Part shown: positions 23,327-41,484 of the stretch, in pieces | Position numbering within the stretch: the stretch's first letter is position 1 | Layout: every line of letters starts with the position of its first letter | Assembly (NCBI GenBank): GCA_934476235.1 | Contig: CAKSNL010000001.1 | Location: 44,497 to 108,496 of the forward strand | DNA length: 64,000 nucleotides | Source: an uncultured Clostridia bacterium | GTDB taxonomy: Bacteria; Bacillota; Clostridia; CAKSNL01; HGM11501 | Direction of reading: 5' to 3' | Translations under genes and position numbers: made by a program | Notes under the pieces: generated by a model | The model's input: only the letters and a program-made list of their open reading frames with translations | What the model was told of the DNA's origin: nothing | The model's database searches: none

Positions 23327-23456
23327 TTGCATAAAAAAATGCCCGGAGCCTTAAGTACTCCGGGCGGAAGGAACATATAATAAGGCTTTTACACCCTATT
23401 ACCTTTTTTATTTGCACGGAGCGGAAAATACCGCTCCGTGCTTTGCTAAGAAAATT

Positions 23457-23609
23457 TTAGTTAATGTCAATCCAATTGATCTTGCCTTTACCCATAAGCT
23501 TGCCCTCGCCCTCAATAGTTTTGAGTGTGCTTGCCATTATTATGTCGCCGGACTCGATTTTTGTAACCTCAAGGGTCGGCGCTTCATATTTTTTCATTTC
23601 TTTCATCAT
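23457..23609 (-). CDS. Small hypothetical protein (50 aa, MMKEMKKYEAPTLEV...GKINWIDIN), translationally coupled to the upstream beta-helix protein gene
   Basis: A strong RBS AAGAGGAGG overlaps the TAA stop of the 948-aa gene. The product is hydrophilic with no Cys and no TM segment. Confidence 0.4.
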   Translation of the reverse strand: MMKEMKKYEAPTLEVTKIESGDIIMASTLKTIEGEGKLMGKGKINWIDIN

Positions 23610-23625
23610 TTCAAAACGCCTCCTC

Positions 23626-26472
23626 TTAATCAGTATACTCAACAAGTTTTTCATTCGCCTTGGTGAATGAAACCGCGCTTCCGTAAACATACTGCACCTT
23701 GTCAATACCCTTTATCTTGTAATAGCTTACGGGAACATAAGTGTAAGTCGTGTTTTCATCAAGCGTTATGCTGCCAGGCTCTGCCTCGTCCATATCTACG
23801 ATGAAGCCCTTGCCTTCCCCGAAGACTGCGGATACGCCCTCGTCGCCTTCATTAAACCGAAGCTTGGAGGTTGTTTCAAGAACTTCCGCCCCGCTTGTCT
23901 TTACGAACGCGGTTCCGAAGTACTCAAGGGGAGTATTTGCGTCATTTCCGGACGTTGTCAAAAATCTTATAACGCCGTAGCTGTTCCCGTCCTTCTCATA
24001 TACGCCCTTGTCGGTCTCTATCTTAAGGTCGGGCGCCTTTGTCCATTCAAGCATTCCCTCGCCGTTCACGAATGCGAATAATTTTCCGTCGCCGTCGCTC
24101 ACAATAGCCGAAGTGTCGGCAAGTGTTGCGCCGCTCTCGATATATCCGATGTAAACGCCCTGTCTTGCAAGATTCTCGGGCTTCGTTTCATTCTTCGCGC
24201 TCTCAGCCACGCCGTGAACGCCTATCTTGCCTGAAAAACCGTTTTTAACAGTCAGGTTCTGCCCGCTTCCCGAAGCAAAGTAAACATTTCTGATTTTGCC
24301 CTTGTCATCTCCTGCCGTGGGAACATTTTCTATAATGCTTGTTGAGCCGTTTAAGTTTAAGCTTCCGGTTATAAACCATACTCCGAATCCGTTGCCGGTC
24401 ACATTCGTATCGGTCAGATTAACGGTTCCGTTAGCAAACACCATTCCTCTTTCAAACCCTGTTATTGTCACATTCTGAGTGTTTAACGTAGCGTACTGAT
24501 TGTTCACATAAACGCCGTATCCGTTCTTATCGGCACCTTCTACCGTAACATTTTCAAGCGTGAGTACCGAAGGATTGGCGGATGATGCATTGTGCTGGCT
24601 GAATGCGTAATCATTTGCCCCGGTCGCGGTCTTTTTTACCGTCAGGTTTCTCATTGTGATATTCTGCCTTGTAAAAATCGTTATCCCGCTGTTTACGCTG
24701 ATCGTCTTTCCGCGTCCCTCTACGGTAAAGGTTCCCATTCCGAATTTAAAATAGGAATTGTCATTCGCTTGGGAAATCGTCACGTCATCGAGCAGATACA
24801 CCGTGCCCCCGTTATACTTATTATCCGTGGGCAAAAGGTCGTAAAAGTCGGTGAAAAGGCTCCATTCACCGTTTAGATTCAATGCCAGCTTCTTTTCAGC
24901 GTCTGCATAGAATACGGAGCCGTCTTCAATAATGCCTTCACATTTATTGTTGCCCGCAACGGTTCCCGTTACGGCTGCGCCGCTGACCGCATATATGTTA
25001 AACGGTGTGTTTTTTGTTATATTCGCTTCGCTGCCGACATTTAACGTTACGCCCGCGCCGATATATACCGGAGCTTTTCTTGCAGCCGTTGCACTGTTGC
25101 CGGTTATTGTTCCGCTGTTTAACGTAACCGTTTCGGCTTTGTCAAGCCAAACTGCGCAGTTAAAGCCTTCTATTGTTATATTGTCGGCAATGAGTGAAGC
25201 GTTGTCATGAGCTAAATAAATCGCCGTTCCTTTAGTCGTTCCGGCATTTTTAATAGTAACGCCATCAAGCGTGAGTACCGAGGGAGTGCCGGCAGCTGCC
25301 ACATTCTGCAATATTGCATAATCGGTATCGCCTGCCGCGGTCTTTTCGATTGTAAGGTTCTTAAGGGTAAGCTTCTGTCTCGGGAAAATATGTATTCCGG
25401 AAGCTACGCTAATCGTCTTTCCGCAGCCCTCTATCGTCAATTTGCCCGCGCCGAATTTCATGTTGCTTCCGGCATTTCCTTTTGTCATGCTGACATTGTC
25501 AAAAAGATACATCGTGCAGTTATTCCAGTCGCTGTCTTTCGTCATAGGCTCGCTGAAATCCTCGTAAAAATGCCAGCTGTTCGTAGTTTCACTGCTGTTT
25601 CTTCTTCCGTATATGGCAATCTTTTTATCGGTATCGGCATAAACCGTATCGCCCTCCGCCAAAACGCTTTCAATCTTGTTGTTATTTGCAACGGTTCCCG
25701 TTAAAGCCGCATTTTTTGTCAGATATACGTTAAACGGAATATTTTCGCTGATAGCTGCGTTCTCCGAAACATTGACCGTTCCGCCGGCTGCATATACGGC
25801 TCCGTATCCGCCGGTGTTTCCGGTAATCGTTCCGCCGTTTATGTTAACCGTTGAGCTTCCGCTGTGTATGGCAATAGTTCCGAATGCCGAAGCCACGCAG
25901 TTTCTAAATTCGCCGCCGTTTATGTTGACAGTCGTGCCGCCGCCCTGTATGAATATAACAGAGCCGTTTCCGCCCTGAACAGAGTCAAACACGGTTCCTT
26001 CTTCAATATTGAGAACGCCGCCGTTCGTGCTTCCAATATATGTGAAAAGTGCGTAGGAAGCTCTTGTCTCGTTCGTTACCGTGATGTTTTTAAGCGTAAG
26101 ATTTCCCGATGCGAGCCCTATATACGAGCCAAGGTCTCCGTTCTTTGCAACCGTCAGCGTATTTCCGCCGCCGTCAAGCGTAAAATTCTTGCTTCCGAGG
26201 TCATAGTAATACGATATTACCGCACCGCTGGTATTTTTAAGTTCCTTGTCTCCGGTCAGCGTTGCGTTCGCCAAAAGTACGATTTTTCCGCCGTCCGGCA
26301 CGTTTTCTATCGCTTCTTCAAGCGTCGTATAATTTGCGCTCAAAGCTCCGTCCGCATTGTACACCGCGGCAACCTCGCCCTCAGCAAAGGACGGCACCGC
26401 AAGTGCAAAAACGCACAAAAGAGCGACTGACAAAACGAGCATCGCCTTTCCGATTCTGTTTCCGATTTTCAT
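23626..26472 (-). CDS. Secreted parallel beta-helix repeat protein (pectate-lyase-fold / adhesin-like) with an internal ~225-aa tandem duplication
   Basis: Signal peptide MKIGNRIGKAMLVLSVALLCVFALAVPSFA. Abundant G/N/T-rich beta-helix rungs (NITV, GGTxTGN, NVTI). Two ~65%-identical repeat units at about 24312-24987 and 24987-25662. A GGAGG RBS precedes the ATG at 26472. Confidence 0.7.
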   Translation of the reverse strand: MKIGNRIGKAMLVLSVALLCVFALAVPSFAEGEVAAVYNADGALSANYTTLEEAIENVPDGGKIVLLANATLTGDKELKNTSGAVISYYYDLGSKNFTLDGGGNTLTVAKNGDLGSYIGLASGNLTLKNITVTNETRASYALFTYIGSTNGGVLNIEEGTVFDSVQGGNGSVIFIQGGGTTVNINGGEFRNCVASAFGTIAIHSGSSTVNINGGTITGNTGGYGAVYAAGGTVNVSENAAISENIPFNVYLTKNAALTGTVANNNKIESVLAEGDTVYADTDKKIAIYGRRNSSETTNSWHFYEDFSEPMTKDSDWNNCTMYLFDNVSMTKGNAGSNMKFGAGKLTIEGCGKTISVASGIHIFPRQKLTLKNLTIEKTAAGDTDYAILQNVAAAGTPSVLTLDGVTIKNAGTTKGTAIYLAHDNASLIADNITIEGFNCAVWLDKAETVTLNSGTITGNSATAARKAPVYIGAGVTLNVGSEANITKNTPFNIYAVSGAAVTGTVAGNNKCEGIIEDGSVFYADAEKKLALNLNGEWSLFTDFYDLLPTDNKYNGGTVYLLDDVTISQANDNSYFKFGMGTFTVEGRGKTISVNSGITIFTRQNITMRNLTVKKTATGANDYAFSQHNASSANPSVLTLENVTVEGADKNGYGVYVNNQYATLNTQNVTITGFERGMVFANGTVNLTDTNVTGNGFGVWFITGSLNLNGSTSIIENVPTAGDDKGKIRNVYFASGSGQNLTVKNGFSGKIGVHGVAESAKNETKPENLARQGVYIGYIESGATLADTSAIVSDGDGKLFAFVNGEGMLEWTKAPDLKIETDKGVYEKDGNSYGVIRFLTTSGNDANTPLEYFGTAFVKTSGAEVLETTSKLRFNEGDEGVSAVFGEGKGFIVDMDEAEPGSITLDENTTYTYVPVSYYKIKGIDKVQYVYGSAVSFTKANEKLVEYTD
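24312..25662 (-). repeat. Intragenic tandem duplication (2 x ~675 nt) within the beta-helix protein gene
   Basis: The protein segments VYADTDKKIAIYG...LTLDGVTIKN and FYADAEKKLALNL...LTLENVTVEG align along their length. The DNA copies are diverged, so this is an old duplication. Confidence 0.6.
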
Positions 26473-30709: not shown

Positions 30710-30738
30710 TTGACTATTTTTCATATATATGGTAAAAT
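30710..30738 (+). promoter_or_regulatory. Sigma-A consensus promoter (TTGACT, 17-nt spacer, TAAAAT)
   Basis: Seen 20 nt upstream of the RBS AAGGAGGGG for the ORF at 30759. Confidence 0.6.
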
Positions 30739-30758
30739 ATCATCTAAGGAGGGGAAAT

Positions 30759-31817
30759 ATGGAAGCAAAAGCAAAAAAGACAGAGATAAACGTCTTAAAT
30801 ATATTTTTGTGCCTTTTGGTGATGCTTATACATTGTATGGGCAACGCCGTATCGCAGACCGACCCGGAGCTGGGCTCATATGCCGTTTCCGCGGCGATTT
30901 TCAGGCTGTCGTCATTTGCGGTTCAGGGATTCATCTTTTTAAGCGCGGTAAAGCTTTTTATGAAAAAAGACGGCGCGCCGTACGGACAATTCATGCTCCG
31001 GAGGATAACCTCCGTTTTCCTGCCGTACATTTTTTATGTTCTGGTTTACTACTTAATCAGGCTTTTTTCAAAAAACGAGGAGTTTGACATTCTTTATTTT
31101 ATAAGGAGCGTTTTCATTGGCGACATGCACGCTCACTTTTATTTTGTCGTTCTTATCATGCAGTTTTACCTCTTGTTTCCGCTTTTTAAAAAGCTTTATG
31201 ACAAAGAAAACGCCGCAGCGGTTACTGCGCTCTCTTTTTGCGTTTCGCTCGCGTTTCAGTTTGCATTTCCGCACGCATTAAATCTACTTTTCGGAATTGA
31301 TTTTATCTATACCGACAGGATTTTTCTCACATATTTTGCCTACTGGACTTTAGGTGCCTTTGCGGGAATCAACTATGAAGCTTTTAAGGCGGCGCTATTT
31401 AAAATAAAGTATCCCGTATTTATATGCTTTTTGATATTCGCCGCAATACTTTGCCCGGAAAATTACCGCGTGATGCGCTTTTCAGAGTACATACCGGGGT
31501 TCGGCGAGCTGTTTTTCGCCTACACCTTCCCCGCGATTCTGACATTTTTTATTCTTGCCAACCTTATTTCCGATTTAAGGATATTTAAAAGCGGCTTCTT
31601 TTCTTTAATGAACAAGGTATCGTACAGGGTCTATCTCATTCACCCTATCGTGCTTTGCTTATTTGATAAATTGTTCGGTGAGATTTTAAAAGATAATCCC
31701 GCCGCGCTTAATATAATAAGGTATCTCGCGGTCGTTATAATTTCCTTTGCCGTTTCGATGCTGATTGAAAAGCTTAAGGAAGTGGTCATATATTTAACCA
31801 AAAAGCTCACGGCTTAA
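30759..31817 (+). CDS. Acyltransferase family 3 (membrane O-acyltransferase, OafA-like)
   Basis: About ten TM helices with a conserved N-terminal His (LIHCMGN), typical of acyltransferase_3. Confidence 0.65.
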   Translation: MEAKAKKTEINVLNIFLCLLVMLIHCMGNAVSQTDPELGSYAVSAAIFRLSSFAVQGFIFLSAVKLFMKKDGAPYGQFMLRRITSVFLPYIFYVLVYYLIRLFSKNEEFDILYFIRSVFIGDMHAHFYFVVLIMQFYLLFPLFKKLYDKENAAAVTALSFCVSLAFQFAFPHALNLLFGIDFIYTDRIFLTYFAYWTLGAFAGINYEAFKAALFKIKYPVFICFLIFAAILCPENYRVMRFSEYIPGFGELFFAYTFPAILTFFILANLISDLRIFKSGFFSLMNKVSYRVYLIHPIVLCLFDKLFGEILKDNPAALNIIRYLAVVIISFAVSMLIEKLKEVVIYLTKKLTA

Positions 31818-31830
31818 GCCGTGAGCTTTT
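31801..31830. terminator. Bidirectional terminator (AAAAGCTCACGGCTTAAGCCGTGAGCTTTT)
   Basis: Perfect palindrome flanked by A/T runs, lying between convergent genes. Confidence 0.8.
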
Positions 31831-33920
31831 TAATTAAAGTCAAATACAACGTTTTTGTTTTCGTCAAGCTTTAAATGCGCGGAAAATTCCTTTCCGCTCT
31901 TTTTGGATATAAACCCCTCAATCTTATACGTTTTTCCTGTTGCGAGGAGGTTTTTAACGTTTGAAATGGAAATGTCCCGTCCGCAGATGGTGCCGCTTAT
32001 CTTAAATTTGCAGCCGTCCTTATAGCCCTTGCAGCCGTATCCGAAGCGGTTTCTCACAACATCGTTCCCGCAAAGAGGGCACTTTCCCGCAACGTCACCG
32101 AAAAAGCCGGTGTCCGTGTCGCGCTCCGGGGGCTTTGTGTCCTTTTTAAAGACCTCGCTTATCTCCCTTTTCGCAAGCTCCACACTGTCGGACACTCCGA
32201 TCTCCCCGCGGTACACTTTCTTAAGCGCCTTGCCGAGCTCTCCGGTCTTATATTTATCCATACTTATCTGCATTTTGGAAAGCGACTCTATCAAAAATTC
32301 TCCGCCCGGAAGTATCGTGTAAACGTCCTTTTTAAGCGAGATATAGCCGCTCTTTTTTGCGTTCTCGATAATTCCCGTCCGCGTTGCCTCCGTGCCGAGC
32401 TCCAGTCCCTCAAATATTGCCCGGTACTCCTCGGCATCGTCCTCGTCCGCCTTTGAAATATCCTCCTTGAACGGATTTTTAAGGTAATTGTTCAAGGTCT
32501 CTATCGTGTAGTGCTTGGGAGGCGAGGTCTCCTTTTCGGCGAGCGAGAAAAGAATATTTACCTCATCGCCTTTATTTAAGCGCGGAAGCACCTTGTCCTT
32601 TTTGTTGTAATCGTCATACTTGGTCCAGCCCTTTTCAAGCATTACAACGCCCTTTAACGAAAAGGACTCTTTATCGCCGACCGCAACGGTGATCTCCGTT
32701 TTTTCAACCTTGCACTCCTCAGAGCAGAAAACTGCGGCAAAGCGGCGCATGATGGCGCTGTACACCTTATATTCCGCCTCCGAAAGCGCCTTTTTATCGG
32801 GAATCTTATGCGTCGGCGTCAGCGCGGAATGGGACTCTATCTTGGAATCGTCGAATATCGTTTTCTTATCCTTGAACACGAGCGGGTAGCCTATCTTGCA
32901 AAACGCCGCGATGATGTTTTTTACCTTGCCCTTTTCGGCGGTCGCAAGGTACTCGGAGTTTGTTCTGGGATATGTCACATATCCTTTTTCGTAGAGCGCC
33001 TGAACGATCTTTAAGCTCTCGTCCATCGGCATTTTATACTTTTTTCCGAGCATGTTCTGAAGCTTGGTAAGAGAGTAAAGCTTGCCGGGCGATAAAGTCT
33101 CTTTTTTCGTTTTCTTTTGGGTCACGGTCGCCTTTTCGCCATTTAAAAGATTGCAGTATTCCGTCGCCTCGGAAAGCTCTGACAGGCTGAACTTTTTCTT
33201 GCTTAAAAGCTCGACCTCTTCCCCGTTTGTCTTTTCCTTGCTTAAAGGCGCATAATACTTTTCGCTCTTAAAATTTCTTATCGCCATGTCGCGGTCATAT
33301 ACCGCCTTGACTATCGGAACGATTACCCTTCCGACTCTTAAAAGCGTGCCCGTCTTAAGCGAAGCATACCGTGTCAAATTAACTCCGTAGAGCCAGTCTA
33401 TGTATGTTCTGGCATAGCCCTCGTTTGCAAGCGGGTCGTACTCCGAATCGTCCGCCAGAGAAGAGAGCCCCTCTCTTATCGTTTCCGTTGTCTGATCTGG
33501 AAGCCAGAGCCTTTTTACCGCCTTTCCCGTTACTCCCGTTTTTTTAATGCAGGTTCTGACGATGATTTCTCCCTCGCGGTCAGAGTCCCCGGCGTTTACT
33601 ATCGTGTCAACGTCGGTTCTTGACGCGAGCGACTTTATCGTGTTAAACTGCGACTTGACGCCCGGGTCCACCTTTCCCGCCCTGTCGTGCTTTAATGAAA
33701 ATTCGAATTTTTCCGGAAAGCAGGGAATATTGTCCATCGTCCAGTGCTTTTTATCGGACGGACTGTAGTACTCTATGTCCTCAAGCGAAAAAAGATGCCC
33801 GAACGCCCATGTAACGATATATCCGCCGCCCTCTAAAAAGCCCGCTCCCTTTTGCATTTTCCCGATTGCGGACGCAATATTTCTTGCAAGCGACGGCTTT
33901 TCGGCAATGATAAGTATCAT
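31830..33920 (-). CDS. topB: DNA topoisomerase III
   Basis: Toprim N-terminus (MILIIAEKPSLARNIA...WAFGHL), the topo IA core and C-terminal Cys4 zinc ribbons. Confidence 0.85.
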   Translation of the reverse strand: MILIIAEKPSLARNIASAIGKMQKGAGFLEGGGYIVTWAFGHLFSLEDIEYYSPSDKKHWTMDNIPCFPEKFEFSLKHDRAGKVDPGVKSQFNTIKSLASRTDVDTIVNAGDSDREGEIIVRTCIKKTGVTGKAVKRLWLPDQTTETIREGLSSLADDSEYDPLANEGYARTYIDWLYGVNLTRYASLKTGTLLRVGRVIVPIVKAVYDRDMAIRNFKSEKYYAPLSKEKTNGEEVELLSKKKFSLSELSEATEYCNLLNGEKATVTQKKTKKETLSPGKLYSLTKLQNMLGKKYKMPMDESLKIVQALYEKGYVTYPRTNSEYLATAEKGKVKNIIAAFCKIGYPLVFKDKKTIFDDSKIESHSALTPTHKIPDKKALSEAEYKVYSAIMRRFAAVFCSEECKVEKTEITVAVGDKESFSLKGVVMLEKGWTKYDDYNKKDKVLPRLNKGDEVNILFSLAEKETSPPKHYTIETLNNYLKNPFKEDISKADEDDAEEYRAIFEGLELGTEATRTGIIENAKKSGYISLKKDVYTILPGGEFLIESLSKMQISMDKYKTGELGKALKKVYRGEIGVSDSVELAKREISEVFKKDTKPPERDTDTGFFGDVAGKCPLCGNDVVRNRFGYGCKGYKDGCKFKISGTICGRDISISNVKNLLATGKTYKIEGFISKKSGKEFSAHLKLDENKNVVFDFN

Positions 33921-35026
33921 ACCTTTTCAGCCTCATGCAAAAGCTTCACGGCATATTCTGCGTTCTCTTCCGCCTTCTTTTTAAGAACGGCGTTTGCCGT
34001 GTGGAGCTTTTCGCGGTGGGAGGAAAGCCCCCCGACCAGAGAATCGAATGTTCTTTTCATTTTTTCGGGCTCCATATCCTCCACGTCAATCATATAAGGC
34101 TGGCTGAGCGATTCCATGAACGCGCTTATCTTCGGATCGTAAACAAGCGCCATCGCCGGTATCTCCAGCGTTGTCGCATATATAAGAGAGTGAAGGCGCA
34201 TCCCTATCAATACCTCCGCCCCGGAAAGAACGGAAAACATCTCCGCGACCGTCAGATTCCTGTTTATTATGTATGAAGGGTGCTTCATCTTTTCCATAAC
34301 CTCTTTTGACACATCCATGTCCAGAGGATACTGCATCGGAACGAAAAGCGGATGTATATCGTACTTTTCGACCATGTAGTCGCATAATGACGCCATCGCC
34401 TCCGAAAAATTGCCGGACGAATTTTTCCACGACCTTATAGATACCGCGCAGACCTTTGTTCCGTCCGGCACGCCGGCTCTTTTTATAAAGAACTGCCCGG
34501 TCAGCGCTTCCTTTAAGTTAATGGTAAACGCCGGGTCGGCAGTGATTATTATTTCGGGCTTTGTAACGCCGAGCTTTTTAAGCTCCTCATCGGACTTGTC
34601 GTCGCGCAGCGTTATTAAGTCCACCTTGTTTAATATCCTTGCCGTCAGCCGCCTGTCCGCACGCGTATTTATCGGACCTATTCCGTTTGCATAAAGCATC
34701 GTCTTAAGCCCGCATTTTTCGGCGAGCGCGATTATCATGAGATAATATTTAAGCGACTTTGAGCTCGTCACGTCCTGAAGCAGGCTTCCGCCGCCGAATA
34801 TGAGCATCTTCGCCTGTTTCATTTCTTTTTTTATCTTAAAATAATTATAGCGGTTTACCGATTTGACCCCGTAGTCACGGGCGGTTTCCTCGGGCGTTTT
34901 TGAAAGCACGGTCACCGAAATATCGGGAGAACGCTGCTTTAATGTGTTCAAAATCGCCCAGAGCAACGCCTCATCCCCGCTGTTGGCAAAGCCATGGTAA
35001 CCTGAAATCACTATGTCCGACATCAT
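33917..35026 (-). CDS. csaB: Polysaccharide pyruvyl transferase CsaB
   Basis: N-terminus VISGYHGFANSGDEALL and a 369-aa length match the CsaB family. Confidence 0.8.
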   Translation of the reverse strand: MMSDIVISGYHGFANSGDEALLWAILNTLKQRSPDISVTVLSKTPEETARDYGVKSVNRYNYFKIKKEMKQAKMLIFGGGSLLQDVTSSKSLKYYLMIIALAEKCGLKTMLYANGIGPINTRADRRLTARILNKVDLITLRDDKSDEELKKLGVTKPEIIITADPAFTINLKEALTGQFFIKRAGVPDGTKVCAVSIRSWKNSSGNFSEAMASLCDYMVEKYDIHPLFVPMQYPLDMDVSKEVMEKMKHPSYIINRNLTVAEMFSVLSGAEVLIGMRLHSLIYATTLEIPAMALVYDPKISAFMESLSQPYMIDVEDMEPEKMKRTFDSLVGGLSSHREKLHTANAVLKKKAEENAEYAVKLLHEAEKV

Positions 35027-37083
35027 TTCATCTCCGAATCAGAAATTTTCGCTTCCGGCGCAAGCACACGGATAATGCGCACGAGCACAAGGTTTGCCAC
35101 ATAAACGAATACCGACAGTACGACGCCGATTATCACGCCGTTAACGACTCTCATATATATAACTGAAAGGTCGGTAAACACATGGCAGAAGCTGTTCATA
35201 ACAGACGCCGAAAGGATCGACGTGCCGACCGCGAAGAACCACTGCACAAGCTTTATTTTCGAGTTCCTCATATAGTAAACGAATAAAACAAGCGAAGGAT
35301 AGCCTATCAAAAACTCCTTTGTTCTCGGGCGTGCCGGGAACGCGTTTGTTATTGCCGTTCTCATCGTCTGCTCAAGCGAGCTTATCTTGTTTACGTTGCC
35401 GCTTCTTATGATATAGTAAAGTCCGATAAGTCCGATAAAGCCGCCTATTATCACCCAGTATACCTTGATATCGGAAAGGAGCACCTTTTTAACGGCAGCG
35501 CCCAGATTCTCCCTGTCCTCCTTCTTGGACGACGCAAAGTAATATGCCGCCGCCGTATACAAAAGCGGAACCATGAGCGAAAGCTTTATTCCTCTGAATA
35601 TATAGTTATTTATATAGTAATCAACGCCGGAAAGCATTGCCCCCATTCCAAGCGCACCGATGCACAAAATCGCAAGCATGAGCGCCGCGATAATAAATAT
35701 CTGGGGAACCGTTTTATATTTCGTGCCCAAAACCGTGCAGGCTTTCATAACCGCCGTCATGGCAAAGCATGAAATGACAAGACAGTAGAACGTCGGATAT
35801 AAAAGCACCAGTGTAAGCGGCATAATAAAGGTTGCGCCGAACGCAAGAACCGAAATGACAAGCGCCGCGGTTTCAAGCTTTCTGTTCTTAAATTCAAAAA
35901 GCATCTCTATGGCTTTAAGCACCAAAAGGATCATTATGACCGCCGAGCATGCCGACGGAAATCTTACATCCGTTTTATAGTCGAACGATGCGGGCTCCTC
36001 ACCGAATTTAAATCCGTACTTTTCCGCACGGTTAATATATTCCTTTACCGCGGTCAGCGTGTAGTCGGCGCACTCGTCATATTCGATTCCGTCCGCTGCA
36101 ATCTGCGTTACTGTGATGAATCTTATATTTCTGTCAACCGACGAATTGAAATACTGGTTCACCCTGTAGTCATAATGTGTGTCGTCATCCTGCGAGTCGT
36201 CATAGGTCTCATATGACCTTAAGACCTTTTTGCTTCCGTTCTTACCCATCACGGTATTGAATATCTTACTGTAGCCTAAGCACTTCTGGTTCGAAAGCTG
36301 ATCTGTGTTTTCCGTTACGACCAGTGTCATATCGTTACGGTTTATCATTTCCCCTATCCAATTATAATTTGCCTTTATAATGTCCTCTTTGTCGTATTCT
36401 CTTACGTATGCCTTTATATTGAAGTATCTTACGTTATAGTCTTTTACTATCTTTTCGATATAGCCTATATAGTCCTGGCGCGAATAGTTTTTTACCTTAT
36501 ATACAAGCGCGATATCAAACCCGTCGTTTTTAAGCTTTTCTATCACGTCCCTGTCATAGCCTAAGGTGAAGTTCCAGAGCTTTTCCCTTCCGTCAAAGAA
36601 GGCGTATATATCCATGTTCTCGATGCCGTTGATCTTTATATACTCATCCGACGAATATTTAAGCGGAATCATCTCGGCAAGCTTTTCCTTCGTCCGTTCA
36701 TTCTTTGTCATAAGAAGATAAGAATCATACGAAACCATAGGATACTTTTCCGCAATGAGGTTTGCAATACGTATGCTCTCATCCTCGTACTTATGTTTTA
36801 AAACATTGTACTTAATGCATGTAAGCTCTCCGCGGGACACTAAGGAGTTCACATCGTCCTCCATAACGGAGACGGTGGTGACTCCCGTTTCTTTGTATTT
36901 TCTCATCATCTCGGCAAGCTTGACCGGAGAGATCTTGTTTTTTATATCGTTATATAAAAGCGATAAAACGACCTTATCATTAGCCTTTTCATTAACTGCT
37001 CTCCTCGCCACAGAGGGTATAAGCGAGAGAAACATAGCTGCGATAATTATCCAGATTCCGAATTTTTCAATTTTTTTCTTCAT
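35023..37083 (-). CDS. Large polytopic membrane protein (DUF5693-like) associated with the SCWP locus
   Basis: N-terminal TM anchor, a ~380-aa extracytoplasmic domain, then about 8 TM helices. Overlaps csaB and the murJ-like gene. Confidence 0.45.
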   Translation of the reverse strand: MKKKIEKFGIWIIIAAMFLSLIPSVARRAVNEKANDKVVLSLLYNDIKNKISPVKLAEMMRKYKETGVTTVSVMEDDVNSLVSRGELTCIKYNVLKHKYEDESIRIANLIAEKYPMVSYDSYLLMTKNERTKEKLAEMIPLKYSSDEYIKINGIENMDIYAFFDGREKLWNFTLGYDRDVIEKLKNDGFDIALVYKVKNYSRQDYIGYIEKIVKDYNVRYFNIKAYVREYDKEDIIKANYNWIGEMINRNDMTLVVTENTDQLSNQKCLGYSKIFNTVMGKNGSKKVLRSYETYDDSQDDDTHYDYRVNQYFNSSVDRNIRFITVTQIAADGIEYDECADYTLTAVKEYINRAEKYGFKFGEEPASFDYKTDVRFPSACSAVIMILLVLKAIEMLFEFKNRKLETAALVISVLAFGATFIMPLTLVLLYPTFYCLVISCFAMTAVMKACTVLGTKYKTVPQIFIIAALMLAILCIGALGMGAMLSGVDYYINNYIFRGIKLSLMVPLLYTAAAYYFASSKKEDRENLGAAVKKVLLSDIKVYWVIIGGFIGLIGLYYIIRSGNVNKISSLEQTMRTAITNAFPARPRTKEFLIGYPSLVLFVYYMRNSKIKLVQWFFAVGTSILSASVMNSFCHVFTDLSVIYMRVVNGVIIGVVLSVFVYVANLVLVRIIRVLAPEAKISDSEMK

Positions 37084-38590
37084 TTTCCGCCTGTCCGCCT
37101 TTCTTTTCTCTTTTGATTATGTGACCCATAACGCCGCTTAATGCCAAAAGAACGATGTACACCGCGCCGCACGCCGCTATCGGAACCAAGAATGTGACAT
37201 ATCCGTGTGTAAAGCCGGGGCTGAACGCATTGAACAAAAGGTATATAGCCACTGCCGCCGCACCGCAGAGCACGGTCTTTACAATGTCGCCAACCGTCTG
37301 CTTATTTAAGTAATTTCCTATTGCGTCCCTCATTTTCACCGCTATAAAAACCGCATACAGCGTTGACAAAAGCGCCGTTGCTCCCGCGGTCATAACCTCC
37401 GCTGCTCCCTTCGGCGCCCAGAGCTTTATACCGGCGTTTAAGATGACATTTGATATGATGACCGCGAGCGTTCCCGAAACGGTGTATTTATATTCGCCCG
37501 AAAGGTACAAGACCTTGTTGAAAAGCTCCTGCGTCGTGTAGCCCAGTATCGAGAGCGTATACATTAAAAATATCACCGCGACGGCGGAAGTTGACTCGCT
37601 CGTAAACGCTCCGCGCTCGTATATGAGCCTTATGACATCGCTTCCGAAAAATGCGACTACCAAAATAAACGGAATAAATATCGCCGTCATTATGTTTATA
37701 ATATAGCCGACTAAGTCTTTAACATAGTCAAGCCTTCCCTCCTCGTAATTTTTCGATATGGACGGGAAAACGACCGTTGACATCGCCACTATAAACACAC
37801 TCGAAATTGTTATAAAAAGGTTGGATGCATAGTTAAAGGTTGACGCCATGCCGGGCGACGAGCTGACGAACGCCCTGTCAATATATATGCAGAGCTGAAA
37901 CATCATGTTGGATAAAAATATCCAGAGTATCTCGGGGTTTTTATTCTTCGCCGAAGCCGGAGAGCCGCCTCTTCCGGCAAACGTATATCCGTGCTTATAA
38001 AACGCCGGAAGCTGAACGGCGATATGTAAAAACCATCCGAAGGTGGTGACCGCAGCGACAGACAGTATAGACACGTTTTTTATAAACAGTGCAATTATAA
38101 GCACCGCATTAAAAGGCAGGCTCATGACCGATGTGATGAAGTACGCCTTCTTATTCTGCAAAAGTCCCGAAATGATATATGCTATAACAACGAACAGAAG
38201 CGACGGCGCCATGATATACATCATTTTTACCGCCAGCAAATAATCGTCCCCCGATATCTCGGGCAGAATTATTTTTACGATGGGACCCGAAAAAAGCGCC
38301 ATTAAGACAGCCGCCAGGGAAAGATACAGAGCGCTTTTTCTTAAAAAGTGGGCTGCATAGCCTTTTTCGTTTCCCGCGTTCTCCGCCTTATTCAAATTTT
38401 TTATAACAAGCGTTGAAAGCGCCACGCCTATCCCTGTGAATATAAGATTGACAAGTCCGAATACCTGAAAATATATGTCAGCCTCCACGCCTGTGCCGAA
38501 AACCCCCGCAAACACCATGTCGCGGTAAAAGCCAAGCCCTTTGGCAATAAGTATGCCCAAAACTACCAATATATAAGCACTGCCTATCAT
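37067..38590 (-). CDS. MurJ/MviN-like polysaccharide flippase (MOP superfamily)
   Basis: The RDMVFAGVFG motif near the N-terminus and 14 predicted TM segments. A strong RBS AGGAGGAG precedes the start. Confidence 0.75.
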   Translation of the reverse strand: MIGSAYILVVLGILIAKGLGFYRDMVFAGVFGTGVEADIYFQVFGLVNLIFTGIGVALSTLVIKNLNKAENAGNEKGYAAHFLRKSALYLSLAAVLMALFSGPIVKIILPEISGDDYLLAVKMMYIMAPSLLFVVIAYIISGLLQNKKAYFITSVMSLPFNAVLIIALFIKNVSILSVAAVTTFGWFLHIAVQLPAFYKHGYTFAGRGGSPASAKNKNPEILWIFLSNMMFQLCIYIDRAFVSSSPGMASTFNYASNLFITISSVFIVAMSTVVFPSISKNYEEGRLDYVKDLVGYIINIMTAIFIPFILVVAFFGSDVIRLIYERGAFTSESTSAVAVIFLMYTLSILGYTTQELFNKVLYLSGEYKYTVSGTLAVIISNVILNAGIKLWAPKGAAEVMTAGATALLSTLYAVFIAVKMRDAIGNYLNKQTVGDIVKTVLCGAAAVAIYLLFNAFSPGFTHGYVTFLVPIAACGAVYIVLLALSGVMGHIIKREKKGGQAENEEKN

Positions 38591-38772
38591 ATAACTCCTC
38601 CTTTTTCAGTGCGTCATCTTTTTAAGAATCCGTTTCAGCATAAAATACGCATTATACTTATTTTATACCATATTAATATATTAGTCAATCATTTCCTTAA
38701 TTTTTTTATTGCAAAATACCCTTTTTGGTATTAGAATATAGATATACACTCAGAAAGAAAGGACTAAATATA

Positions 38773-41484
38773 ATGATGAAGAAACTATCTGCTCTTCTTG
38801 TCGCTCTCGTAATTTTATCGACCGGCATATTTGCCTCCGAGATCTACAGGACAGAAGAAGTCATCCCGATTGCGGACGGTATCACTTTAACAAAGGTACG
38901 GAGCTTTTATTCCGATCATAATTTAAGCTATTCATATATAAAGGCGGATCTTAATAACGAGAATGTGGGGCTCCGCCTCCTGACACCGTACACAGGGACG
39001 GACTCGCTTGACACCGTCGGTAACATCGCCTCGTCGTATCCCGGGACGGTCGCAGCGTTAAATGCTGACTTTTTCTCCACGGTCAAAAGCGGAAAGGCGC
39101 TTTCGCTCGGTATTGAGATACAGGACGGGCACCTTTTGCAGTCGCCGATAAATCCCGATACTATGGCAACGGTATATGAAAAAGACGGCGTGGTCGATAT
39201 GTCCTATCTCGGCTTTAACGTGATGGTTGTGGCGCCGAACTGGGAATACGCCCCCATTGCGCACATAAACAAGCACACCGCCTACTACGGCGCGATATTG
39301 ATGTACACAAAGGACTTTAACGGAGGATACTCCCCCGCTCCCGGCGGCGAGGTGCTGGAGGTCGTTGTCGAGGACGGAATGATAAAGGAATTCAGGCGCA
39401 ATATGCCGCCGGTCCAAATCCCCGAGAACGGCTGCGTCTTAGTCGTTTCGGAAGGCTCCACCATGTTTTTCGCCAATAATTTCGCGGTCGGCGATCCGGT
39501 CAAGTTCGATTACTATGTTACTCCGGACATTTTATCGTCCGACACGGCGTTCGGCGGAGGCGCCATGCTCGTTTCCGACGGCAAAGTTGTCACCGGCTTT
39601 TCGCACGTCATCTCGGGCTATAACCCGAGAAGCGCCATAGGCATAGATGAAAGCGGAAAAACGGTATACCTGGTCGCAGTGAACGGCAGAACGAGCGAGA
39701 GCCGCGGCATGACGATGAGCGAGCTTGCCGCGCTCATGGCTGACTTGGGCTGCTACAAAGCCGTGAATTTGGACGGCGGCGGCTCCACAAACATGGTAGC
39801 CTCCACCATATGGGCGGAAAAGATACACACGGTGAATAAACCGAGCGAAAACAGGCGCGTTGTTAACGCGGTCGGTCTTTCATATTCGTCAGAGCCCGGC
39901 ACGCCTTCCGGCATCGCGCTTGAGGCGGACGCAAGCTCCGTTTTCATCGGGCAGTCAGCAAAAATTTCCTATGCCGTATATGATGAGCATAAGCGCCCCG
40001 TATCGGGAGACGTCACATGGTTATCAGACGGCGGAGAGGTCGCGGGCGGCTACTTTACCGGTACTGTCGGCGGGAACGCATTGATCCGCGCCGAATCGGG
40101 CAGCGCTTCGGGCGAGCTTAACATTTTCGTGATCGACAAGATCGCCGGAATCGAAACGGAGCGCACAGTCTCCCTTTCTCCCGGCGAAAGCGCGGATATT
40201 CCGATAATCGTGTATGACTTCGAGGGGCACAGGTGCTCCGTTTATAACTATGAGCCCTTCTCATTTGACACAACCGATCCGTCGGTCGCATATGCAAAGG
40301 ACGGCGTTATCCACGCGGTCGGAAACGGCAGCGCGGTAATCTCGGTATCAAAGGACAGTGCCGTATCTTATATCGGCGTCACCGTCGGCGCCGCTCCCTA
40401 TGACTATACCGAGGATTTTGAAACTGCCTCCGGCGAATTTTCCTCCTACCCGGCATATGTCGGAGGGGACTGGTCCCTTTCAAATGAATTTTTCCGCTCC
40501 GGCTCATCGTCCGGCAGACTTTATTATGACTTTACCGCGGATACCGACGATACGAAGGCGGCGTACTTTTCCCTTTCTTCACCCGTAAGATTATCGGATG
40601 ACGAAAGCTCCGTTTCCGTATACGCGAAAACTGGCGAGGGCTTTTCCCACTCGCTCAAAGCGCTTTTAACCGACAAAAACGGCAAGGCGCTCTATGTCGG
40701 ATTCAAAAAGACGGAGGACGGCGACTTTGCCCGTTACACTGCCGATATCCCGGCGGACGCGGCGCGCCCCGTTACACTTTCCAAAATATACGTTGCCGCA
40801 CTCTCCGGCGAGGAGAAGGACGAAGGATATGTTTATTTTGACGACCTTTCCTTCCGTGCCGCAGAAAGCGCGCCCCTTCCCTATGTTCCGAAAAATGTGT
40901 ATGACGACCCGGCAGAGTCCGACGGCGCGGGAAGGACCTTCTCTGTAGGCGCAGTTAAAAACAGCGGAACGCTCCTTTCAAAGCTTGCGGCGGAGAAAAT
41001 GACATCCGCACTTTCCGGCTCCTCTGCCTTTGCCCTCTTCGGAAGCGACAATTCATCTGCTGTGAACAAGCGAAATACTTTTTATAAGACTGAGGACGAG
41101 GACGCGCTTTATATAAGTGTCAACTCAGGCTCGGGCGGAATCAGAAAGGCGGACTCTTCACAGTGGGACAAGATTTTGTCCTCGGTAAGCTCCACCGGTA
41201 AAAAGAACATCTTCATTCTTTCCGAAACTCCGGTCTTATCTTCGGACAGCTTCGAAAACGAAGCGGCAACAGGATTTTTCTCAAAGCTTTCACAAAGCGG
41301 TAAAAACATATTTGTAATAGAGCACGGAAGCGTTGATTCTCTCAAAATAATTGACGGGGTGCGCTATTTCACCCTTGCGGACACGGCTGAAAATGCGGCA
41401 ACGTCAACCAAAATCAATAATTATTCATACCTTGAATTTTCATTCGGAAGCAATGTGACCTACCGCGTAAAGCGCGTTTTTTAA
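38773..41484 (+). CDS. Secreted phosphodiester glycosidase family protein (NAGPA-like domain) with C-terminal Ig-like/carbohydrate-binding-like domains
   Basis: Signal peptide MMKKLSALLVALVILSTGIFA and the NLDGGGSTNMV signature of the phosphodiester glycosidase family. Confidence 0.7.
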   Translation: MMKKLSALLVALVILSTGIFASEIYRTEEVIPIADGITLTKVRSFYSDHNLSYSYIKADLNNENVGLRLLTPYTGTDSLDTVGNIASSYPGTVAALNADFFSTVKSGKALSLGIEIQDGHLLQSPINPDTMATVYEKDGVVDMSYLGFNVMVVAPNWEYAPIAHINKHTAYYGAILMYTKDFNGGYSPAPGGEVLEVVVEDGMIKEFRRNMPPVQIPENGCVLVVSEGSTMFFANNFAVGDPVKFDYYVTPDILSSDTAFGGGAMLVSDGKVVTGFSHVISGYNPRSAIGIDESGKTVYLVAVNGRTSESRGMTMSELAALMADLGCYKAVNLDGGGSTNMVASTIWAEKIHTVNKPSENRRVVNAVGLSYSSEPGTPSGIALEADASSVFIGQSAKISYAVYDEHKRPVSGDVTWLSDGGEVAGGYFTGTVGGNALIRAESGSASGELNIFVIDKIAGIETERTVSLSPGESADIPIIVYDFEGHRCSVYNYEPFSFDTTDPSVAYAKDGVIHAVGNGSAVISVSKDSAVSYIGVTVGAAPYDYTEDFETASGEFSSYPAYVGGDWSLSNEFFRSGSSSGRLYYDFTADTDDTKAAYFSLSSPVRLSDDESSVSVYAKTGEGFSHSLKALLTDKNGKALYVGFKKTEDGDFARYTADIPADAARPVTLSKIYVAALSGEEKDEGYVYFDDLSFRAAESAPLPYVPKNVYDDPAESDGAGRTFSVGAVKNSGTLLSKLAAEKMTSALSGSSAFALFGSDNSSAVNKRNTFYKTEDEDALYISVNSGSGGIRKADSSQWDKILSSVSSTGKKNIFILSETPVLSSDSFENEAATGFFSKLSQSGKNIFVIEHGSVDSLKIIDGVRYFTLADTAENAATSTKINNYSYLEFSFGSNVTYRVKRVF

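Follow-up and report, generated by a model that had tools for sequence, protein, structure and literature searches.

Small genes coupled to large secreted-protein genes in gut and rumen Clostridia encode candidate precursors resembling those of linear polyphosphorylated peptides

INTRODUCTION

The linear polyphosphorylated peptides (LPPs) are relatives of the lasso peptides that were described in 2026 (Popov et al., Nat Commun; PMC13381572). Their precursors are 35–200 aa long and have a conserved N-terminus ending in xxS and a hypervariable C-terminus; the consensus is YxxPxVLxHQxIxFETxxS, in which the Ser lies at Tyr+18, and in LppA the phosphorylation site is Ser3 of the core (PMC13381572). 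[quoted passage not shown] The motif [Y/W]xxPx[LVIFA], present in both lasso and LPP leaders, has been defined experimentally as the RRE-binding motif (PMC13381572, PMC6784204). SpI/RRE systems of a Clostridia type (SSN clusters 4 and 9, from Lachnospiraceae, Ruminococcus and Desulfitobacteriaceae) have no reported precursor (PMC13381572, Supplementary Data 1). Here we describe a two-gene locus in which a small ORF follows the gene for a large secreted protein, together with the peptide family to which the small ORF belongs, and we compare them with these systems.

RESULTS AND DISCUSSION

Organization of the locus

The locus lies on the minus strand of the window, by which we mean the whole 64-kb stretch of DNA that was analysed. 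Its features are listed below with the evidence for each.

23626..26472, minus strand: partner gene, encoding a 948-aa secreted protein (translation, Pfam, AF2 model, Foldseek, conservation profile)
23619..23627, minus strand: Shine–Dalgarno sequence AAGAGGAGG, 9 nt 5′ of the start codon
23457..23609, minus strand: small ORF of 50 codons plus TAA, MMKEMKKYEAPTLEVTKIESGDIIMASTLKTIEGEGKLMGKGKINWIDIN (translation, homologues, dN/dS)
23538..23609, minus strand: predicted leader, residues 1–24, to D22-I23-I24 (family conservation, analogy with LppA)
23571..23588, minus strand: Y8-E-A-P11-T-L13, a match to the RRE-binding motif (sequence motif, family conservation)
23529..23531, minus strand: codon of Ser27 (Ser in 99 % of the family, always at Tyr+19)
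23460..23537, minus strand: predicted core or tail, residues 25–50 (alignments)
23331..23441, minus strand: 3′ UTR with three hairpins (terminator scan, RNA fold)

The original prediction placed a strong ribosome-binding site over the TAA stop of the large gene, and this is what is seen: AAGAGGAGG (23627–23619) covers the final two bases of that stop codon (23628–23626). The spacer between it and the ATGATG that starts at 23609 is CGTTTTGAA, which we count as 9 nt and not as the 8 nt given originally. The stop-GGAGGCGTTTTGAA-ATGATG junction is kept across all related loci, and L001–L011 all keep GGAGGCGTTTT(G/T)A(A/G) and, after it, ATGATG. Beyond the stop codon of the small ORF (TAA, 23459–23457), the terminator scan identifies the last of the hairpins (23365–23341) and its U-run as an intrinsic terminator, which closes a two-gene operon. 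The 3′ UTR has an RNA-fold z of −6.4, and its hairpins are kept in L001 and L010 despite base changes. The small ORF is co-transcribed with the gene for a large protein secreted by a Sec-type route and is translated directly after it.

The 50-aa peptide contains eight Lys, six Glu and no Cys, and inspection of its translation reveals no hydrophobic signal segment, exactly as in the hydrophilic, Lys/Glu-rich product without a signal peptide that was first described. Ten close homologues were found at 70–100 % identity, with the reading frame kept behind related partner genes, and dN/dS in this frame is 0.07–0.34, so both the conservation and the substitution pattern bear out the proposal of a real small protein, as do the conserved ribosome-binding site, spacing and terminator. 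The pair of genes is retained in three unrelated genomic contexts, and among relatives the peptide is 78–86 % identical as against only 41 % for the partner. The small ORF is a true gene, and purifying selection acts on it. Its very small size and its position as the final cistron ahead of a structured 3′ UTR might be taken to mean that it has no function at the protein level, either as a chance ORF or as one whose translation merely stabilizes the 3′ end of the mRNA; the dN/dS values, the maintenance of invariant residues in at least 164 peptides whose contexts are unrelated and the lack of any match above the Rfam threshold all speak against this, and such an explanation, to which we give only a vanishing probability, is effectively refuted by the conservation data. 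An RNA element was rejected since the Rfam matches fall far under threshold, and an extension of the partner by frameshifting or readthrough was rejected since the open frame upstream shows no conservation.

The partner protein

The description of the partner as a 948-aa secreted β-helix protein holds on several grounds. Its N-terminus has a signal-like helix followed by ...PSFA|EGE (translation and AF2 model), Pfam Pectate_lyase_5 matches at 30 bits against a cut-off of 24.3, and the AF2 model consists of short β-strands with pLDDT of 80–90 across residues 33–760. All of its top PDB matches in Foldseek are right-handed β-helix proteins (PL6 lyases, tailspikes, Ag43 and Hap), and these matches are weak, with E-values from 4e-5 to 1e-1 and low TM owing to the domain arrangement. 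The modelled architecture is a signal peptide, tandem right-handed β-helix regions and a conserved C-terminal domain at about residues 800–948. This last domain is the best-conserved region of the window's partner family (60–64 % identity in the conservation profile), and on its own it is left unfolded by AF2 (pLDDT ~30). Pfam reports no known wall-anchor domain in the window's partner.

The peptide family and its conserved anatomy

The family comprises at least 164 distinct unannotated peptides of 29–128 aa (median 50), carried mostly by uncultured gut and rumen Clostridia. An exhaustive HMM search gave 37 cluster representatives and a profile search 86 clusters, and scans with a hand-made degenerate DNA pattern gave 59 family loci; two long proteins in the profile search, P0026 and P0028, were set aside as repeat proteins with chance similarity. 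The source annotation of the members is 'hypothetical protein' only. Neither the window peptide nor 36 relatives have a match above threshold in Pfam-A or NCBIfam, the sub-threshold matches of 36 members being to DUF5972 (E ≥0.1) and to lasso models (E ≥0.07), and a literature search for family sequence strings or DUF5972 returned nothing. No family match was found in plasmid and phage collections by tblastn or in viral contigs by the DNA-pattern scan, so the family is not obviously mobile or phage-borne.

The family consensus is KK-Y-E-x-P-x-h-x-[VIL]-T-x-h-x3-D-[VI]-I-x-x-S. In a positional profile of the 164 distinct peptides, Y is present in 99 %, E in 96 %, P in 100 %, D in 94 % and S in 99 %, at fixed spacing, and the position two residues past the Pro is L, I, V or M. 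Conservation drops right past the invariant Ser, and the tails are variable. By analogy with F-3/E-2/T-1 of LppA, the leader boundary is inferred to lie after residue 24. Ser27, the sole acceptor candidate that is conserved throughout the family, is then a candidate phospho-acceptor and the putative counterpart of LppA core Ser3; alternatively, it could occupy position −1 of a site cut by a signal-peptidase-type enzyme, T/M-A-S|G. The AF2 model of the peptide alone is extended and has no secondary structure, as would be expected of a strand-donating leader. Though variable family-wide, the tail in the window's subfamily keeps KL(M/L)GxGK(I/V)xWI(D/E)I(N/Q); a subfamily tail so well conserved counts against a reading of the peptide as an LPP-like precursor.

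Relationship to the LPP systems

LPP precursors such as LppA of Paenibacillus alginolyticus resemble the family in being small Bacillota peptides with a YxxPx(V/L) start and with three conserved residues followed by x-x-Ser and a hypervariable region. The RRE-binding motif is matched by Y8-E-A-P11-T-L13 in the window peptide, and the family's lengths, conserved N-terminus and hypervariable C-terminus agree with those of LPP precursors. The full LPP consensus is absent: in contrast to LPP leaders the family has D-[VI]-I, lacks HQ and FET and separates Tyr from Ser by one residue more, which places the Ser at Tyr+19. Against the family HMM, published LPP precursors reach scores of 0.4–8.9 bits, values that fall in the range of the decoys, and in an hhalign comparison with LPP precursors the family matches over only 18 columns, with P = 0.0024.

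A direct link to these systems comes from L046 and L100, the two of about 59 family loci in which LPP-type enzyme genes lie beside the peptide. The L046 peptide scores 33.3 bits on a family HMM that was built without it; 9 nt past its gene is that of an Hpr_kinase_C protein, followed by genes for an 86-aa RRE and a 144-aa GDSMLP peptidase, of which the latter two are homologous to RRE/SpI pairs of PMC13381572 Supplementary Data 1 (E 9e-14 and 1e-15). In L100 the order is NTP_transf_5, kinase, a 1089-aa secreted protein, peptide, kinase, PqqD (E 3e-18) and SpI-like peptidase, and the peptide (29.8 bits) is encoded 14 nt downstream of the secreted-protein gene. The core-gene order in both, namely precursor, HprK-like kinase, discrete PqqD RRE and SpI-like peptidase, is that of LPP loci, and their SpI and RRE proteins resemble SSN clusters 4 and 9 rather than cluster 1 (PMC13381572). 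The peptidase in both is SipW-like and of the signal-peptidase type. No MsbA-like gene is seen on either L046 or L100, both of which are short contigs.

Most family members differ from LPPs in lying outside gene clusters and capsule loci, alone behind large secreted-protein genes, and no LPP-type enzyme genes are found at the other ~55 loci. Around the window peptide no LPP cluster is found: tblastn detects no RRE, kinase, SpI-like or NTP_transf_5 genes in the 64 kb, which also contain no RRE-sized ORF, and no maturation genes appear past the window edges in the extended view. We nevertheless consider it probable, by analogy with the LPP systems, that the ORF encodes an LPP-like leader–core precursor whose maturation genes lie elsewhere and whose core is phosphorylated and exported. 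As in LppA, the YEAPTL segment would bind an RRE as an added β-strand, and the RRE would present the peptide to the kinase for phosphorylation of the invariant Ser27; an SpI-like peptidase would then cut off the leader (approximately residues 1–24), and the modified core of about 26 residues would be exported. The enzymes would be encoded beyond the 64-kb window and serve several dispersed precursor genes, and the mature peptide may act outside the cell with the secreted protein or with the cell envelope.

Dispersed RiPP precursors that are served in trans by one enzyme set are represented by the ProcA peptides of the prochlorosins. These are similar in that each genome has many paralogous precursors, which combine a single conserved leader with diverse cores and are mostly encoded far from the enzymes; the precursors described here differ in being coupled to unrelated large secreted-protein genes, and the chemistry is different as well. 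To our knowledge no such translational coupling is present among prochlorosins, and no RiPP precursor is known to be coupled one-to-one in this way to large secreted proteins, which counts against the LPP-like reading.

Coupling to secreted-protein genes across the family

A same-strand upstream gene at −8 to +58 nt is present at 46 of 55 informative loci (including metagenome matches). Same-strand ORFs of at least 500 aa end within 60 nt upstream of 27 of 38 peptides, as against six of 128 control genes at the same loci (p ~1e-27), and the coupling of the peptide gene to a secreted-protein gene is more than chance. The partners are usually large, mutually unrelated and signal-peptide-bearing, with signal-peptide-like N-termini in 28 of the 32 complete ones, and include β-helix proteins, BspA-type LRR proteins, GH2, GH3 and GH5 enzymes and esterases. 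In the cultivable isolate GCA_001603005.1 the family peptide P0112 is encoded behind an LRR/DUF285 protein. Neither blast nor phmmer finds a domain common to all of them, and a C-terminal helical motif seen in several partner clusters proved to be an internal repeat and not a peptide-specific module. None of ~52 partners has a Pfam wall-anchor domain, while Cu_amine_oxidN1 or SLH is present on neighbouring secreted proteins that have no peptide. At L040, L024/L053 and L072 the partner gene is in tandem and each copy has its own peptide copy, an arrangement that fits a stoichiometric partner better than a RiPP precursor.

The dedicated relationship with the surface protein that was first proposed from the tight coupling is therefore strongly supported, both by the three contexts of the window's pair and family-wide. 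Of the roles then listed (chaperone, maturation factor, immunity or regulatory peptide), a chaperone-like or adaptor function is retained below as a rival; the evidence otherwise points to a RiPP precursor, the listed roles being disfavoured by the leader/core anatomy, the YxxPx(L) motif and the two members within LPP-type gene sets. An immunity protein of a polymorphic toxin was rejected since CAZymes and adhesins make up the partners and the peptides have a common leader; an accessory gene of a DGR was also considered and rejected.

If the LPP-like reading is correct, the family provides candidate precursors for the Clostridia-type SpI/RRE systems that lack one in PMC13381572, and the LPP-like class would reach beyond the capsule loci of Bacilli and take in uncultured Clostridia of the gut and rumen. 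An arrangement in which dozens of scattered precursor genes are each translationally coupled to the gene of a different large secreted protein is undescribed for RiPPs. The coupling also offers a testable handle on the purpose of phosphorylated linear peptides, which it would tie to extracellular or surface proteins, and it draws attention to numerous small genes in gut microbiomes that have gone unannotated. A more specific reading, which we think unlikely, is that RiPP chemistry is put to a new use here, each peptide being matured by RRE-guided phosphorylation, possibly with nucleotidyl or glycosyl modification, and exported as the dedicated extracellular partner of the protein encoded upstream. 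Were this so, the peptide could tether an anchor-less enzyme or adhesin to a cell-wall polymer, or could instead complete the conserved C-terminal domain of its partner, and gut Clostridia would possess a modular, peptide-based surface display with one private RiPP per surface protein.

Alternative explanations

The peptide might instead be an unprocessed, dedicated partner of the co-encoded secreted protein (an adaptor, an escort or a strand-complementing piece) that is made 1:1 with it through translational coupling. The peptide's variable tail would attach to the cognate protein, for instance to the conserved C-terminal domain, and its conserved N-terminal strand would dock on a shared cellular component such as the machinery for secretion or retention. 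The direct coupling at most loci, the frequent signal-peptide-like N-termini of the partners and the private peptide of every tandem partner copy are as expected of such a partner, and the tail type follows the partner class. The strongly conserved C-terminal domain that AF2 does not fold alone, the extended, disordered peptide and the missing wall anchors, which set the partners apart from neighbouring peptide-less secreted proteins, point the same way. Type III secretion chaperones and Tat REMPs (NapD) are substrate-specific and encoded beside the exported substrate, and like the peptide such chaperones are small, mostly acidic and leaderless; they are, however, folded proteins of 90–150 aa with no similarity to it in sequence or fold, and we know of no Sec-pathway equivalent. 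Moreover, the peptide has no signal peptide and the partner is Sec-exported, so without an exporter of its own the peptide would end up in a different compartment from the partner. The partners have no detectable common domain and hence no evident common binding site, natural partner–peptide fusions number zero among more than 120 clusters, the members in kinase/RRE/peptidase operons are left unaccounted for, and the co-variation of tail and partner may be mere co-inheritance of a two-gene module. On balance we regard an unprocessed partner as a possible but doubtful explanation.

That the peptide is an exported signal of the quorum-sensing or kin-recognition type, its production reporting that a given extracellular enzyme or adhesin is being expressed, we consider very unlikely. 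A conserved leader for export and processing with a variable tail as the signal would suit the family's anatomy, as would the several differently tailed paralogues per genome (for example L025 and L032), the acidic-aromatic motifs that end many tails and the co-transcription with enzymes of the public-good type (GH2, GH3, GH5 and esterases). However, genes for a receptor, regulator or exporter do not recur around the loci, the leader is neither of the double-glycine nor of the Sec type, and signalling is largely a functional sub-case of the LPP-like reading and not a separate mechanism. A lasso-peptide precursor is extremely improbable. The precursors of paeninodin-type and other lasso peptides (PbaA, PadeA and FusA) share with the family the segment MKK-(Y/W)-x-x-P-x-L-E-V, which in them binds a discrete RRE as a β-strand, and the YxxPxL motif, the likeness to the PbaA leader MKKEWLKPELEV and weak matches to NF033528 lasso_cyano (E 0.074) and the NF033524 paeninodin family (E 0.21) are in keeping with this. 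In contrast to lasso precursors, the family has a longer conserved region that ends in the invariant Ser and no lasso-compatible core: there is no conserved Thr at −2, and the tails have no consistent Gly/Ala/Ser at position 1 with Asp/Glu at 7–9. Genes for a macrolactam cyclase or B2 protease are absent near the loci (115 neighbouring ORFs, L046 and L100), and the enzymes of L046 and L100 are the cyclase-free LPP set.

Other leader types were also considered. A Sec signal was rejected, the leader not being of that type. In the double-glycine motif, positions −4, −7, −12 and −15 are hydrophobic, Glu occupies −8 and GG, GA or GS lies at −2/−1; no C39-ABC transporter recurs near the family loci, and on manual registration the family consensus fails the motif in every register. 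Gly directly follows the invariant Ser in only 49 % of the members.

The two-gene operon

The small ORF follows the gene of its large partner on the minus strand and is itself followed by an intrinsic terminator, so that partner and small ORF form a self-contained operon, with these features:

26472..23626, minus strand: partner ORF, 948 codons, TAA stop at 23628-23626
23627-23619, minus strand: Shine-Dalgarno sequence AAGAGGAGG, overlapping the partner TAA stop
23609-23457, minus strand: small ORF, 50 codons, ATGATG at 23609 after a 9-nt spacer from AAGAGGAGG, TAA at 23459-23457
23365-23331, minus strand: intrinsic terminator, formed by the last hairpin and a U-run

The overlap of ribosome-binding site and stop codon, and the 50-codon ORF opening with ATGATG, are present as originally predicted, with exactly the translation quoted then; the junction is indeed tight, although the spacer is 9 nt long and not 8 nt as claimed. 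The 3′ UTR beyond the small ORF is about 130 nt long and structured, with three hairpins (RNA fold z = -6.4). The operon is set among divergent sugar-metabolism genes, with a KDPG aldolase and PfkB upstream and a convergent RpiR regulator downstream. We note that all three hairpins (23331-23441, minus strand) are retained with base changes in two related loci (L001 and L010) and that only the last is a canonical terminator. In the first, an A-rich tract comes after a GC-rich stem of 11 bp, and this hairpin may terminate or stabilise transcripts arriving from the convergent RpiR side. An Rfam search of the small-ORF region gave no match near threshold.

The small ORF is a real small-protein gene, as had been suggested: its reading frame is kept in homologues of 49-51 aa, which form ten clusters in public assemblies (70-100 % identity), and its dN/dS is 0.07-0.34 (pairwise Nei-Gojobori). 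For the same pairs the peptides are 78-86 % identical, whereas the partners share 41 % identity. Related contigs keep the junction stop-GGAGGCGTTTT(G/T)A(A/G)-ATGATG as well as the hairpins beyond the ORF, and the ORF is conserved behind homologous beta-helix genes, the two-gene module recurring in three unrelated neighbourhoods: between aldolase and RpiR genes as in the window, flanked by ClpP and FtsK, and flanked by a ROK kinase and an ABC ATPase. The peptide and RpiR genes of a related strain are separated by an inserted restriction-modification pair, RE_AlwI and a D12-class methylase (L001, 6748-11740; L003, 4016-6566), accompanied in L001 by a large serine recombinase, marking this spot as an integration site.

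The partner protein

The partner begins with a signal-peptide-like helix followed by ...PSFA|EGE, matches Pfam Pectate_lyase_5 above threshold, and is modelled by AF2 as stacked short strands (pLDDT 80-90 at residues 33-760); its top PDB matches are right-handed beta-helix proteins throughout, with weak E-values. Its description as a secreted beta-helix protein is therefore fair. When residues 1-50 and 800-948 were compared with the beta-helix body in nine homologues, conservation was highest in the signal peptide (59 % identity) and in the C-terminal domain (60-64 %), against 13-38 % for the body. AF2 leaves the C-terminal segment (814-948) unfolded alone, with a pLDDT of about 30 versus 80-90 in the body. 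This pattern suggests a diversifying, surface-exposed body joined to a constrained C-terminal module that may be partner-dependent for folding.

A large family of small proteins coupled to secreted proteins

The window peptide is a member of a large family that carries no annotation. Searched exhaustively with a profile, 1.8 billion representatives yielded 37 matches, and a profile search of a 5.8-billion-cluster set retrieved 86 clusters, every one of at most 66 aa and with 'hypothetical protein' as the sole name. Among GTDB species representatives a degenerate DNA pattern located 41 true family loci, almost all of them in uncultured gut or rumen Clostridia and with several copies per genome; it found about 18 further loci in metagenomes and none in viral contigs. 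The profile of 164 distinct peptides is K-K-Y(99%)-E(96%)-x-P(100%)-x-[LIVM]-x-[VIL]-T-x-[IFL]-x-x-x-D(94%)-[VI]-I-x-x-S(99%), and conservation collapses immediately past the serine. The tails that follow are very diverse and 10-100 residues long; the window's subfamily retains KLMGKGKIxWIDIN. AF2, given the family alignment, predicts no secondary structure for the lone peptide.

The tails of five members (L015, L018, L044, L048 and L060) form one subfamily ending ...(F/I)DL(P/E)(E/G)(D/E)(D/E)(P)F/Y, for example GGDGDFDLEEEPFN; these ends resemble the acidic-aromatic C-terminal tip of bacterial SSB, possibly by coincidence. In a genome assembly deposited at NCBI (L064; GCA_001603005.1, contig LVAJ01000013.1, 3409-7099), a 32-aa member, MKKYEAPEMEVVAFDAEDVITASDDLLPADRD, lies behind a 1184-aa LRR_5/DUF285 surface protein, with a GerE-type response regulator upstream of the pair, and this strain, if cultivable, is a possible experimental entry point.

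The dedicated relationship with a surface protein that had been proposed is supported by coupling across the family: of 55 informative loci, 46 have a same-strand ORF whose end lies -8 to +58 nt (median about 14) ahead of the peptide start, and in 44 of these 46 it is at least 240 aa long or runs off the contig. A partner of at least 500 aa lies upstream of 27/38 peptides versus 6/128 control genes (p ~1e-27); in a few loci (L030-L032) the large gene is directly downstream instead. Signal-peptide-like N-termini are found in 28 of 32 complete partners. By BLAST and phmmer the partners are many unrelated clusters, not one family, with Pfam domains that include GH2/GH3/GH5, SASA and GDSL esterases, NPCBM, beta-helix/Pectate_lyase_5, BspA-type LRR and DUF285, Flg_new and DUF4886. 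Where partner genes are in tandem there is one peptide gene for each copy (L040, L024/L053 and L072). None of about 52 peptide-coupled partners has a recognisable Pfam wall-anchor domain; adjoining large secreted proteins that have no peptide often end in Cu_amine_oxidN1 or SLH (L014-L100, L066-L068), an uncontrolled observation. The neighbourhoods of family loci contain no recurring biosynthetic or export gene.

Resemblance to lasso and polyphosphorylated peptide precursors

Leaders of lasso peptides bind a discrete PqqD-like domain (RRE) as an added beta-strand through the motif [Y/W]xxPx[L/V/I/F/A] (PMC6784204; PMC13381572), which the N-terminus of the window peptide fits; family members match lasso precursor models at sub-threshold levels only. 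Linear polyphosphorylated peptides (LPPs) of Bacillota, described in 2026, derive from precursors of 35-200 aa with a conserved N-terminal YxxPxVLxHQxIxFETxxS and hypervariable C-termini. The precursor is presented by a discrete RRE to a SipW-like, signal-peptidase-type (SpI-like) leader peptidase, core Ser3 is polyphosphorylated by an HprK-like kinase, and the remaining members of the core set are NTP_transf_5 and an MsbA-like pump (PMC13381572). The two groups share a plan of YxxPxh, three conserved residues, two variable ones, an invariant serine and then variability, although the present family has one extra residue between Tyr and Ser and lacks HQ and FET. Alignment of the family with LPP precursors by hhalign covered 18 columns (P = 0.0024); the family HMM scores published LPP precursors no better than decoys.

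Two clear family members, scoring 33.3 and 29.8 bits with an HMM built without them, lie within LPP-type gene sets. In an uncultured Bacilli MAG (L046) a 128-aa peptide is followed after 9 nt by a 243-aa P-loop protein carrying Hpr_kinase_C (E 7e-7), an 86-aa RRE and a 144-aa GDSMLP peptidase, an order identical to lppA-K-B-S. The second, a metagenome contig (L100), encodes NTP_transf_5 (E 1e-37), a kinase and a 1089-aa secreted NPCBM/Flg_new_2 protein, then, 14 nt later, the peptide, a kinase, PqqD (E 3e-18) and an SpI-like peptidase; a module of large secreted protein plus peptide can thus share one locus with maturation genes. The RRE and peptidase of L046 have homologues in the pair from SSN cluster 4 of the published LPP survey (E 9e-14 and 1e-15; PMC13381572 Supplementary Data 1), and L100 proteins match entries of clusters 4 and 9 (Anaerocolumna, Ruminococcus), for which no precursor was reported (PMC13381572).

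The window peptide is coupled to a secreted protein, bipartite with an RRE-type motif, and of the same family as peptides of kinase/RRE/SpI operons. By analogy with the studied precursor LppA, its YEAPTL segment would bind an RRE, Ser27 would be phosphorylated, an SpI-like peptidase would remove the leader (approximately residues 1-24) and a core of about 26 residues would be exported; cleavage might alternatively follow the invariant serine, where T/M-A-S|G obeys the -3/-1 rule. No RRE, kinase or SpI-like peptidase was found in the 64-kb window or just past its edges, nor near about 55 other family loci. RiPP logic does not account for the one-to-one coupling with secreted proteins, and this keeps alive a rival explanation in which the peptide partners the large protein stoichiometrically; the conserved C-terminal domain that AF2 does not fold alone is also consistent with that rival. 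Given the RRE-type motif and the LPP-type loci, the specific roles of the original prediction (chaperone, maturation factor, immunity or regulatory peptide) are not the best fit, and we consider it rather likely that the peptide encoded by the window ORF is an orphan precursor, LPP-like and belonging to a new subfamily of this recently described kind. The unusual genomic coupling makes the biology of LPP-like peptides testable.

Other genes in the window

A 582-aa Na+/H+ antiporter ORF (7818-9566, minus strand) has a faint match to DUF6520 at residues 4-37, with its transporter domain starting at residue 229, and the DUF6520-like stretch could represent a small gene, fused or mis-started. A cell-envelope polysaccharide block (30729-41484) encodes an acyltransferase_3 protein, a CsaB-like polysaccharide pyruvyl transferase, DUF5693, a MurJ-type flippase and a 919-aa NAGPA phosphodiester glycosidase, and is noteworthy because polysaccharide loci are the reported setting of LPP and paeninodin clusters.
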